From Shigella phage SP18, in the sequence record GQ981382: a stretch of 64,000 nucleotides of DNA, one strand, 5' to 3'. Made by a program: the position numbers and the translations under genes. Positions 1 to 55,396 of this stretch are shown here, in pieces (positions within the stretch are counted from its first letter, which is position 1; the number at the start of each line of letters is the position of its first letter). The notes beneath the pieces were generated by a model. It was not told the origin of the DNA. It saw only the letters and a list, made by a program, of their open reading frames with translations, and did not search any database.

Positions 1-1556
<1,556 letters not shown>

Positions 1557-52512: not shown

Positions 52513-52537
52513 TACGTATTAATTATACTTCAAAGTG
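52513..52537 (-). promoter_or_regulatory. Middle-type promoter candidate upstream of gene 32
   Basis: Minus strand cGCTTCAatcactttgaagTATAAT, with 12-nt spacing. Confidence 0.5.
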
Positions 52538-53157
52538 ATTGAAGCGATAAACTTTTGAAATTCAGAATCAAGATGGGGATTCCATCCTAATTTGAATTTA
52601 TTTATAATGGAAATACCGGTCGTGTGTGTACACGGTAAACCAGTTTCTCTTGCCATAATAACTGGACCAAGTCTGGAAGTTCTATGCGGTCCTATATACC
52701 AGTCATAATATATTCCAGCATTTAACCAAACTAAATGAGCACCTTTAGCTATTGTATTAGGATGTTCCCAAGGCAATAAACCTTTAAGGTGAGAATTTAA
52801 TTTCATATTTATTTTATGTGATTCTGATTTTGGTTTACCTTTTAATGAAGACTTAAAGGTTCCACGAGCACTCGCCTTATTGAAAAACAATGGCGATTTA
52901 ACCACATTATAGTGTTGATGGTAAAACTCTTCTTCTGACAACACATCGTCACACACATGCAGAATTTTAACGGTTGGTTTTTCAGACAATGCCTCAATAA
53001 AACGAGATTGTTTGCATGAAGACCAGTATTCTTTATTATGTGAATCAATTATAACACCATTTTCAAAAGCACAATTATGCTTTGACCCAATGTAAAAATA
53101 AGGAGGCGTTTTATTTTTCAGACGAGTTTCAAATGTAAACCAATATACAACATTCAA
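52519..53157 (-). CDS. Hypothetical protein at the segG-like locus, possibly a degenerate GIY-YIG endonuclease
   Basis: 212 aa between genes 32 and 59; N-terminal VYWFTF...YFYIGSK loosely resembles a GIY...YIG motif. Confidence 0.35.
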   Translation of the reverse strand: MNVVYWFTFETRLKNKTPPYFYIGSKHNCAFENGVIIDSHNKEYWSSCKQSRFIEALSEKPTVKILHVCDDVLSEEEFYHQHYNVVKSPLFFNKASARGTFKSSLKGKPKSESHKINMKLNSHLKGLLPWEHPNTIAKGAHLVWLNAGIYYDWYIGPHRTSRLGPVIMARETGLPCTHTTGISIINKFKLGWNPHLDSEFQKFIASITLKYN

Positions 53158-53807
53158 AACTTACACCCTTTAACAGTCTCGATGAACAATTTACGGGCTT
53201 CAAGAGAATCGATATTTAAGATTTTCTTATAAGCATTTAGTTTAGTTGAATACTTTTCCCAAACCAAGTCGTTAGTCTGTTCATCATGTTGGTCTATTAT
53301 ACCTAAAAATGAATCAAGCAAACAAAACGTTTCAAATGAAATAACATTCGATTGGAGAAGTTTGAAAATATAACTTGTATTCACTTTAGTATTATACTCG
53401 AAAATCTCTTGAAGCGATTTGACTTCGACTTTCTTACTGAAGTAATAGATATTCTTTATATCATCTTCGTATACTTGTTTAATTCTTTTAAGTCTGCCAA
53501 TGTATTCACGATAAAATATCAGAGCATCAGCATCACTTATATCGCCTATCCATGCATCCTGGTTTGCAACCAGGTTTGACATGAATATTAACGTTAATTC
53601 TTTAAGAGTGTACTTATCGCTAAGCTTTTCGAAAAAATACTTATCGCGACGTTTTTGATAAGCACTATCGGAGATTCGCATGGTCCAGTTATATTTGATA
53701 ATATCATAACGACCCGAAAAATGCTGTTTGATGGATAAGTACAGTTGGTATACTGATTTACCATTTATGTATCGGTTGTTATTTGGAGGCATGCGAATCG
53801 TAATCAT
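53154..53807 (-). CDS. 59: Helicase loader gp59
   Basis: 217 aa, the T4 gp59 length; matches (KYFFEKLSDKYTLKELTLIFMSNLVANQDAWIGDISDADALIFYREYIGRLK). Confidence 0.95.
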   Translation of the reverse strand: MITIRMPPNNNRYINGKSVYQLYLSIKQHFSGRYDIIKYNWTMRISDSAYQKRRDKYFFEKLSDKYTLKELTLIFMSNLVANQDAWIGDISDADALIFYREYIGRLKRIKQVYEDDIKNIYYFSKKVEVKSLQEIFEYNTKVNTSYIFKLLQSNVISFETFCLLDSFLGIIDQHDEQTNDLVWEKYSTKLNAYKKILNIDSLEARKLFIETVKGCKF

Positions 53808-54097
53808 AACAAAAAGTCCAGCGTATTAGTTTTCTGTGTACGAGACATACTCGGACGAAGCAGGTTATCATCATATGCTTCATTCATAATCTTATCGACG
53901 ATTCCCGCAGGGATATATCGCGCAAAATTACCTTCAGGAATTCCACGTTCTTCCAACCAGGCAGTTGTAGCTTCCAGATAAGACATTTCGGTTGACTCAA
54001 CCATGGCTTCAATATCAAGCCCGTTTTGCTGCTTACTAATCGCCCCGGAAGGCGATTCAGTTTTCTGTGTATCAAAATTAACTAAAGAGGACATCAT
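53804..54097 (-). CDS. 33: Late transcription co-activator gp33
   Basis: C-terminal match to T4 gp33 (MSYLEATTAWLEERGIPEGNFARYIPAGIVDKIMNEAYDDNLLRPS...TNTLDFLL); start placed at the Met with a GGAG RBS; 5' end overlaps dsbA. Confidence 0.8.
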   Translation of the reverse strand: MMSSLVNFDTQKTESPSGAISKQQNGLDIEAMVESTEMSYLEATTAWLEERGIPEGNFARYIPAGIVDKIMNEAYDDNLLRPSMSRTQKTNTLDFLL

Positions 54098-54332
54098 AGA
54101 GCTCCACAGCTTCGGTTTTTTCATCTTCAAAACGCTCACGGGTGCCTTTATGATACAGACCGAGCTGTGTATTGAACATCTTACCGTCAACGCCTAATTC
54201 GGTTTTTGCCTTGTCTTTAAGGTCTTTAATTTCGTCTGCATATGCTTCCATTTTTAATTTGGTATCGGAAGCAGCTTTAATCAGCTTGGCCAGTTCAGCA
54301 CCATGAGTATCAGGACAAAATTCAACTTTCAC
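54078..54332 (-). CDS. dsbA: DsbA-like late-gene dsDNA-binding protein
   Basis: 84 aa, T4 dsbA position between rnh and 33; apparent GTG start; overlaps gene 33 in a different frame. Confidence 0.65.
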   Translation of the reverse strand: MKVEFCPDTHGAELAKLIKAASDTKLKMEAYADEIKDLKDKAKTELGVDGKMFNTQLGLYHKGTRERFEDEKTEAVELYDVLFS

Positions 54333-54356
54333 TTTTTTCTTCTTTCATAATATACC

Positions 54357-55301
54357 TTAATAAAATTCAGCAATGTTTGCAGTTAGTTTAGACAGACCAG
54401 ACTTAACAAAGTAAGGATAAACTTTACTTTTGGCCGGGATGACGTAGTTATTATATCGTTCTAAAATTGAAGCGGATATTTCCGTTGGGATAAAGTCCAT
54501 ATCAATCAACAATTGGTTTTCACAGAATCTATTATATTGCTCTTCTGTTAAAAGCGTTTTCAGCACGTCATGGTCGTAATAGTTGAGCGCAATTTGTTCA
54601 AGCTCGGCTGCACGTGTCGGTGGAGTGCGTTCACCCTCTTCGTGAGTGTAATAAAAATCACCACGAACCTTGATGCTCGACACGTTATCTTTTTTGTCAC
54701 CTTTAACAACCTTTGTCACGCAATCCATAAGGGCATCGCCTGATTTAGTTTTGACATATTTTTTCTGCATCGGGGACCATTGTTTCACCCCAGGGAATTT
54801 ATGCAACTGTGTAAAGTCACCATCCGAAGAAACAATCATAACCGGATGTCCGAGACCAGTGAGCAACTTCGTTAATACTGCAATATGGTCATCAGCCTCG
54901 ACTTTATCCATATTCATCACGATGTAAGGCATGTGTTTTTCCATTTCATCGATAATGATGTGCATGGCAGCATGTAGGCCTTCCCAATCGAATTGAGACT
55001 CTTCACGAGCTTTCGCACGGTTTTTCTTATAATAATAAGATTTTGTGCGGCGCCAATAGCCATTCTTCGAGTTATCAACACAAATAATTGGAATCGTATA
55101 ACCGAGCTTCTTGAACTGCACAATATTTTTTCTGATGGAGTTCAGAACCAGGTGTCTGGTCATTGCAGTTGTTACCTTCGGAAAGCCTGCGTCTTTGCCG
55201 AATTCCTGGAAGGCTGCAGCCATGATGAGCTGACTAAAATCGAGTAACTGAAAACCATCTTTTTGACGGTCTTCTTCAGGGAGTAAAAAATCTAAATTCA
55301 T
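54357..55301 (-). CDS. rnh: RNase H (5'-3' exonuclease / flap endonuclease)
   Basis: 314 aa; matches T4 RNase H (GYWRRTKSYYYKKNRAKAREES, EADDHIAVL, SSDGDFTQLHK). Confidence 0.95.
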   Translation of the reverse strand: MNLDFLLPEEDRQKDGFQLLDFSQLIMAAAFQEFGKDAGFPKVTTAMTRHLVLNSIRKNIVQFKKLGYTIPIICVDNSKNGYWRRTKSYYYKKNRAKAREESQFDWEGLHAAMHIIIDEMEKHMPYIVMNMDKVEADDHIAVLTKLLTGLGHPVMIVSSDGDFTQLHKFPGVKQWSPMQKKYVKTKSGDALMDCVTKVVKGDKKDNVSSIKVRGDFYYTHEEGERTPPTRAAELEQIALNYYDHDVLKTLLTEEQYNRFCENQLLIDMDFIPTEISASILERYNNYVIPAKSKVYPYFVKSGLSKLTANIAEFY

Positions 55302-55329
55302 ATGAACCTCTGTTCAATTAGTTGACTCG

Positions 55330-55358
55330 ATTATATTAGCATAAAATTTTTAAAGCAA
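55330..55358 (-). promoter_or_regulatory. Middle-type promoter candidate upstream of rnh
   Basis: Minus strand tTGCTTTAaaaattttatgctaaTATAAT; spacing longer than the usual 11-13 nt. Confidence 0.35.
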
Positions 55359-55366
55359 TATAAATA
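55359..55366 (+). promoter_or_regulatory. Late promoter motif TATAAATA upstream of gene 34
   Basis: Exact TATAAATA about 30 nt upstream of the gene 34 ATG. Confidence 0.7.
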
Positions 55367-55396
55367 CACGTATACCAATCAATAAGGATAAAGCAC

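Follow-up and report, generated by a model that had tools for sequence, protein, structure and literature searches.

The overlap between dsbA and gene 33, and the probable coupling of the two genes, are already known, having been described in bacteriophage T4 decades ago. A 2010 review refers to dsbA as "translationally coupled" to gene 33, with an overlap that is conserved among T4-related phages, and the coupling in T4 is credited to Williams et al. 1989 (as cited by Geiduschek and Kassavetis 2010, PMC2988020). According to the same source, normal late transcription requires gp33, T4 can do without dsbA, and the role of DsbA is a question that is still open (PMC2988020). The gp33 protein of T4 has been structurally characterised and binds the RNA polymerase beta-flap (3TBI, 7D7D). 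The dsbA/gene 33 pair is not mentioned in the T4 post-transcriptional review.

Here we describe the corresponding junction in a 64,000-nt stretch of the genome of Shigella phage SP18 (GQ981382), hereafter referred to as the window. To what has been reported for T4, the analysis adds a broader count of junction conservation, a gene 33 start assignment for this genome, and a frameshifting insertion in the third codon of dsbA, the one unusual point of an otherwise ordinary arrangement. As in T4, the gene order is rnh-dsbA-33-59, genes 33 and 59 share an ATGA overlap, the gp33 ATG is found in the Tyr-Asp codons of DsbA (T-ATG-AC in T4, T-ATG-AT here), and dsbA and gene 33 overlap in different frames, by 23 nt in T4 and by 20 nt here. 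The two junctions differ in that T4 gp33 is 112 aa long, with a longer and divergent N-terminal third (97 aa in the window); that the nearest Shine-Dalgarno-like sequence of T4, GAGG, lies 12 nt upstream, whereas a GGAG is present here 4-7 nt upstream together with a second, adjacent ATG; and that dsbA is intact in T4. Considerably closer are vB_EcoM_VR7 and other members of Gaprivervirus (NC_014792, MW269952, etc.), which display 95-99% nucleotide identity over dsbA and gene 33, an identical junction sequence, and annotated products of 89 aa (DsbA) and 96 or 97 aa (gp33). All of these relatives have ATGAAAGAGAAAAAAGTG at the dsbA start, whereas the window has ATGAAAGAAGAAAAAAGTG, which leaves the dsbA ATG out of frame. 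Termination-reinitiation after early frameshifts or short ORFs, as in T4 rIIB and in the scanning model of prokaryotic reinitiation, is the other described system to which the locus can be compared.

Gene content and surroundings of the rnh-dsbA-33-59 block

In the ORF list of the window, rnh, dsbA, gene 33, and gene 59 form a tightly packed block on the minus strand (Table 1). An 801-nt query across the site matched 32 phage genomes at 95-99% identity (best match 98.6%), every one of which annotates RNase H, DsbA, the gp33 late-promoter transcription accessory protein, and the gp59 helicase loader; by sequence, the source lineage is identified as a VR7-like T4-type phage belonging to Gaprivervirus.

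Table 1. Coordinates of the features of the rnh-dsbA-33-59 block (positions in the window).
Feature	Coordinates	Strand	Remarks
rnh (RNase H)	54357..55301	-	314 aa; 100% identical to annotated RNase H of relatives
rnh stop TAA	54359..54357	-	overlaps dsbA AAGG Shine-Dalgarno (54358..54355)
rnh/dsbA spacer			8 nt
Canonical dsbA ATG (54348..54346), now opening a mini-ORF	54322..54348	-	8 codons, MKEEKSES; stop TGA 54324..54322
Extra A in dsbA codon 3	54340..54341	-	GAAG here, GAG in relatives; frameshifting; from alignments
dsbA body	54078..54332	-	84 codons, GTG 54332 to TAA 54080..54078; ORF list, tblastn, Pfam
GGAG Shine-Dalgarno of gene 33	54102..54105	-	formed by DsbA codons Val-Glu (GTG GAG)
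Gene 33 (late-transcription coactivator gp33), assigned start	53804..54097	-	97 aa from ATG 54097; stop TGA 53806..53804
Gene 33, alternative start	ATG 54094	-	96 aa; adjacent second ATG
dsbA/gene 33 overlap, from assigned start	54078..54097	-	20 nt; 17 nt from ATG 54094
Gene 33/gene 59 stop/start overlap (ATGA)	53804..53807	-	4 nt; equally annotated in VR7, JS10, and T4
Gene 59 (helicase loader)	53154..53807	-	217 aa; Pfam PF08993 and PF08994

The first-pass annotation had named the two genes gp33 and DsbA, and Pfam, structure matches, and annotated relatives all agree with these identities. The gene 33 product matches PF16805 (Trans_coact) over residues 20-94 with 91.7 bits (cut-off 25), is homologous to the T4 gp33 structures 3TBI_A and 7D7D_K (E 5e-28, query residues 17-97), and is encoded between dsbA and gene 59, an order that is identical in 13 annotated relatives. 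Its C-terminus reads QKTNTLDFLL, the last seven residues (NTLDFLL) being those of T4 (...KTNTLDFLL), and an alignment of 11 sequences shows no variation at L93 and D94. The C-terminal tail of T4 gp33 binds the gp45 sliding clamp, and on sequence grounds gp33 of the window has a tail like it. The full PF11126 model (1-67) aligns to residues 18-84 of the GTG-started dsbA ORF at 77.8 bits (cut-off 25), which assigns the predicted product to this phage double-stranded DNA-binding family; a search of the PDB returned no solved structure for any DsbA relative.

Consensus scans of the minus strand between 54098 and 54356 revealed no TATAAATA late promoter, MotA-type motif, or terminator-like site. 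Given this and the tight spacing of the genes, the four are most probably translated from one message. Upstream of the block, the intergenic region from which rnh and gene 34 diverge (55302..55396, minus strand) contains ATTGCTTTA, which resembles a MotA box and is followed by TAATAT/TATAAT; the motif is a possible candidate middle promoter for the rnh-dsbA-33-59 block, with a spacing slightly longer than the usual 11-13 nt. A late promoter for gene 34, TATAAATA, is found on the opposite strand at 55359..55366.

Downstream of the block, an ORF of 212 aa (52519..53157, minus strand) lies between gene 59 and gene 32 and overlaps the gene 59 stop by 4 nt. This ORF has a match in PHROG 7504 'homing endonuclease' (E 2.9e-91) and none in Pfam, is present in two metagenome-derived contigs (L016 and L073), and is absent from phages 212 and P479, in which gp59 is 222 aa and gene 32 is directly adjacent. 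T4 has the homing endonuclease segG in the same slot, between genes 59 and 32, and the ORF therefore resembles a mobile insertion into a site that is used recurrently. In the GenBank record of Escherichia phage 212 (PQ765507.1, 9311..12444), product names appear shifted by one gene, such that a dsbA-sized CDS of 270 nt is labelled 'RNaseH ribonuclease' and a gp59-sized CDS 'late promoter transcription accessory protein'; the shift is a mistake in the annotation of a public record, with no biological meaning.

Start of gene 33 and conservation of the junction

The mechanical ORF list gives gene 33 as 128 aa from a TTG (53804..54190, minus strand) and dsbA as 84 aa from a GTG (54078..54332, minus strand), in different frames and with 113 nt in common. 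The first-pass annotation took these starts as its basis, described an extensive overlap of two genes with non-ATG starts, and singled out 54078..54124, an interval that spans the DsbA stop to the first ATG of the gene 33 ORF (54124). TTG and GTG are indeed the starts in the ORF track, but gene 33 has an ATG with a GGAG, and dsbA begins with ATG in every relative. Position 54190 was called by a 'first start after a stop' rule, and dsbA was listed with a GTG because a private 1-nt insertion separates ATG 54348 from the body of the gene; both are by-products of mechanical ORF calling and not real starts. The out-of-frame overlap itself persists from the conserved start, at 20 nt (or 17 nt) rather than 47 or 113 nt. 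The remark that the annotation depends on start choice also holds, in that the first ATG (54097) is the annotated gp33 start in VR7 and JS10, whereas P479 and automated gene callers use the second (54094).

Comparative evidence places the start of gene 33 at ATG 54097 or at the adjacent ATG 54094. In the window the gp33 ATG is embedded in the C-terminal Tyr-Asp codons of DsbA, and the pentamer TATGA is invariant in an alignment across 7 genera, with the embedded ATG in the context T-ATG-AY. The GGAG is separated from ATG 54097 by 4 nt and from ATG 54094 by 7 nt, and its anti-Shine-Dalgarno pairing (-5.6 kcal/mol) compares with -2.6, -2.4, and -1.8 kcal/mol at ATG 54124, TTG 54190, and GTG 54332, respectively. 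Substitutions were analysed in 18 distinct Gaprivervirus sequences. In the dsbA-only part (54098..54332), 18 of the 20 sites that vary fall on the third position of a DsbA codon, which is the second position in the gp33 frame, and downstream of the dsbA stop, in the part specific to gene 33, gp33 third positions account for 26 of 31. The 20-nt overlap has no variable sites among the 18 sequences, which is not significant alone given that approximately two would be expected.

It is very improbable that gene 33 instead begins upstream, at ATG 54124 (MKKPKLWSS-MMSS...) or TTG 54190, with an overlap of 47 or 113 nt. Such a start would fit a Gaprivervirus frame that is open up to 54190 and an MKKPKLWSS extension that is invariant within the genus, but DsbA coding accounts for the invariance of 54098..54124, and seven of the eight variable sites in 54125..54190 are DsbA third and gp33-frame second positions, silent in DsbA and amino-acid-changing in the putative gp33 extension. 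The TTG-54190 extension is thus not under coding selection. There are no variable sites within the genus in 54098..54124, and the exclusion of ATG 54124 thus rests on cross-genus comparison and Shine-Dalgarno strength. Other genera have GAC or GCT at the position of ATG 54124, and the gp33 frame is interrupted by a TAG 3-4 codons ahead of the conserved ATG in JS10, T4, Marfavirus, and the Jiaodavirus-like M198; Shine-Dalgarno pairing is weak at both upstream candidates, and all annotators and gene callers picked 54097 or 54094. Taken together, the substitution pattern, the stop codons of other genera, and the strength of the Shine-Dalgarno pairing led to the rejection of starts at 54124 and 54190, and the start at 54097 or 54094 is retained below.

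The junction is conserved well beyond Gaprivervirus. Annotated overlaps are 20 nt in JS10 (Dhakavirus), Marfavirus, and Klebsiella phage M198, 23 nt in T4 and Karamvirus PG7, and 26 nt in Bragavirus, while Krischvirus has 8 nt as annotated and 26 nt from the embedded ATG, and Biquartavirus has an annotated overlap of 1 nt (TAATG). In Acinetobacter phage Melin the annotation leaves a gap of 4 nt, although an in-frame ATGATG is present at the Tyr-Asp position. Phage phi1_146002 has a 1-nt spacer and is missing the embedded ATG because its Tyr codon is TAC. Among 46 IMG/VR loci encoding gp33, dsbA is immediately upstream in all 46, the junction with the gp33 start measuring between -3 and +26 nt. 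An in-frame ATG is present at the DsbA Tyr-Asp codons in 37 of these (overlaps of 20-26 nt), eight have a 1-3-nt spacer following the dsbA stop, and the remaining one (L058) has an identical junction sequence with gene 33 frameshifted downstream. Eleven further annotated genomes agree with the conserved junction.

In the L058 record (IMGVR_UViG_2706796116_000001, about 651..1000), gene 33 is frameshifted after codon 18 in an A-run that counts six As, compared to seven in the sister locus L057, which leaves the conserved body without an in-frame ATG; this is probably a homopolymer sequencing error in a public record. Across the sequences compared, gp33 opens with six or seven residues (MTQSLND, MTQFSLN, MMSSLVN, etc.) that correspond to the conserved DsbA C-terminus (YDxxF...) read in the other frame. 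This dual-frame reading may be why the extreme N-terminus of gp33 seems conserved and the next 10-30 residues are highly variable.

An extra base in dsbA codon 3

In relatives, the canonical ATG opens an 89-aa DsbA beginning ATG AAA GAG AAA AAA GTG (MKEKKV...), whereas the window reads ATG AAA GAA GAA AAA AGT GAA AGT TGA from ATG 54348. The frame of the dsbA body is open from 54344, directly after a TGA at 54347..54345 (tblastn query residues 2-89 correspond to 54344..54081 of the window), has no ATG before codon 28 of the listed ORF, and reaches GTG 54332 at what is Val codon 6 of DsbA in relatives. An intact dsbA with the family ATG in frame was thus not found in the window.

The insertion was seen in this sequence only. 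In alignments with the 801-nt query, each of the 32 close phage records is one base shorter (800 nt), and the extra base is missing from all of approximately 47 close relatives, made up of these 32 records, 3 contigs from IMG/VR, and 12 further public ones. Exact searches with the insertion version gave no matches in IMG/VR or in JGI metagenomes, the normal version being found in IMG/VR; the dsbA frame is intact in all 12 public contigs whose RNase H or gp59 is identical to that of the window; and an exact-protein look-up of the 84-aa GTG-started product retrieved no second sequence with the insertion.

Whether the extra A is a sequencing error or a genuine mutation is a matter of about equal odds. 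The chances are even that it arose in sequencing or assembly and that the real phage has an 89-aa DsbA from ATG 54348, as would be consistent with its absence from every relative and database searched and with the occurrence of frameshift errors in public T4-like genomes, such as that in gene 33 of L058. There is, however, no long homopolymer at the site (GAG to GAAG), and each of 64 further coding sequences that the window has in common with phage 212 aligns in one frame over nearly its whole length, none of them being broken by the other single-base indels that distinguish the two, which indicates that the window sequence is not generally error-prone. Dispensability of dsbA in T4 (PMC2988020) further implies that a real mutation would be tolerated. 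With a likelihood just short of even, the insertion is real, and either it is a null allele of dsbA, a dispensable gene, so that DsbA is lost, or rescue still yields DsbA, at a reduced level. The reading frames permit two routes for the latter. Ribosomes could initiate or reinitiate at GTG 54332 after translating the mini-ORF, the stop of which lies 8 nt downstream of the GTG, or tRNA-Lys could slip at a low level into the +1 frame on the A6 run (GAA AAA AGU read as AAA|GUG), yielding MKEEKVKVEF.... The Pfam domain begins at residue 18 of the 84-aa ORF, leaving the N-terminal 17 residues outside it, so that a product minus the first five residues could still fold and be functional. On the other side, the Shine-Dalgarno pairing of GTG 54332 is weak, six As are too few for efficient slippage, and no other sequence carries the insertion among those searched.

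In T4 rIIB, ribosomes reportedly reinitiate near early stops. If the insertion is real, the position of the mini-ORF stop just past an in-frame GTG would reproduce a geometry known to permit restarts; the window differs from such systems in the poor Shine-Dalgarno of its GTG. The tRNA-Lys is prone to shifting on A-runs. A -1 frameshift on A AAA AAG was also considered and rejected, given that, counted from the ATG, the frame of the dsbA body is +1 and not -1. For annotators, the practical consequence is that the insertion should be checked against reads before dsbA is called a pseudogene or given a GTG start.

Probable translational coupling of dsbA and gene 33

The first-pass annotation had raised translational coupling of dsbA and gene 33 as a possibility, and for T4 the literature already calls the pair coupled (PMC2988020). 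We consider it probable (roughly 80%) that the locus is a standard rnh-dsbA-33-59 block in which the ATG of gene 33 lies inside the end of dsbA and the two genes are coupled through termination near the gene 33 start. The two genes are adjacent on the same strand, the start of gene 33 lies just upstream of the dsbA stop, and the junction is conserved across divergent relatives, as expected of a coupled pair. Ribosomes finishing dsbA would terminate 17-20 nt downstream of the gene 33 start, from where they could either restart at gene 33 or open the site for new ribosomes. Prokaryotic ribosomes can restart over such distances after termination.

Folding of the start regions bears on which type of coupling would be at work. 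The gene 33 start region of the window has a moderate z-score of -2.28 in its own fold, with a stem that is not conserved, and a 7-genus consensus fold over the gene 33 start has no predicted pairs; a conserved RNA structure at this position was accordingly rejected. The dsbA start region is less structured than shuffled sequence (z +1.77). An 'unmasking' type of coupling is without support, and in the lack of a conserved masking structure coupling, if it operates, is more likely to proceed by termination-reinitiation than by unmasking.

The main alternative is that the overlap reflects genome compaction only, with gene 33 initiating de novo at its own GGAG, independently of dsbA translation. 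In Gaprivervirus the GTG GAG codons make a good GGAG, a Shine-Dalgarno that most other genera are without, and this makes independent initiation a serious, though not exclusive, alternative; with so strong a site, optimally spaced from ATG 54094, gene 33 may be able to dispense with translation of dsbA altogether. The absence of a conserved structure concealing the gene 33 start is in keeping with this, as is the fact that the dsbA ATG is out of frame here in a phage that is presumably viable and requires gp33 (PMC2988020). That compaction is the whole explanation nevertheless seems unlikely to us. Most other genera lack a good Shine-Dalgarno (GTGGTAGAACTGT-ATG in JS10, and only the distant GAGG in T4), and the tight junction is kept in all 46 loci regardless; coupling is moreover reported for T4 (PMC2988020). 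Under the preferred reading of a coupled pair, the GGAG should also permit independent initiation of gene 33 in this lineage.

It is on this point that the insertion in dsbA may be informative. We tentatively propose, at odds that fall below even, that the extra A is real in a viable phage and constitutes a natural uncoupling experiment, in which either gp33 is made without dsbA translation or DsbA is rescued through GTG 54332 or +1 slippage. In the former case, adequate gp33 would be made via the lineage-specific GGAG, and the conserved coupling would be dispensable; in the latter, a restart at GTG 54332 or +1 slippage on the A6 run would sustain both DsbA translation and the coupling. If the insertion is real, this phage would be a natural tool for examining the dependence of gp33 on dsbA translation, and the function of DsbA.
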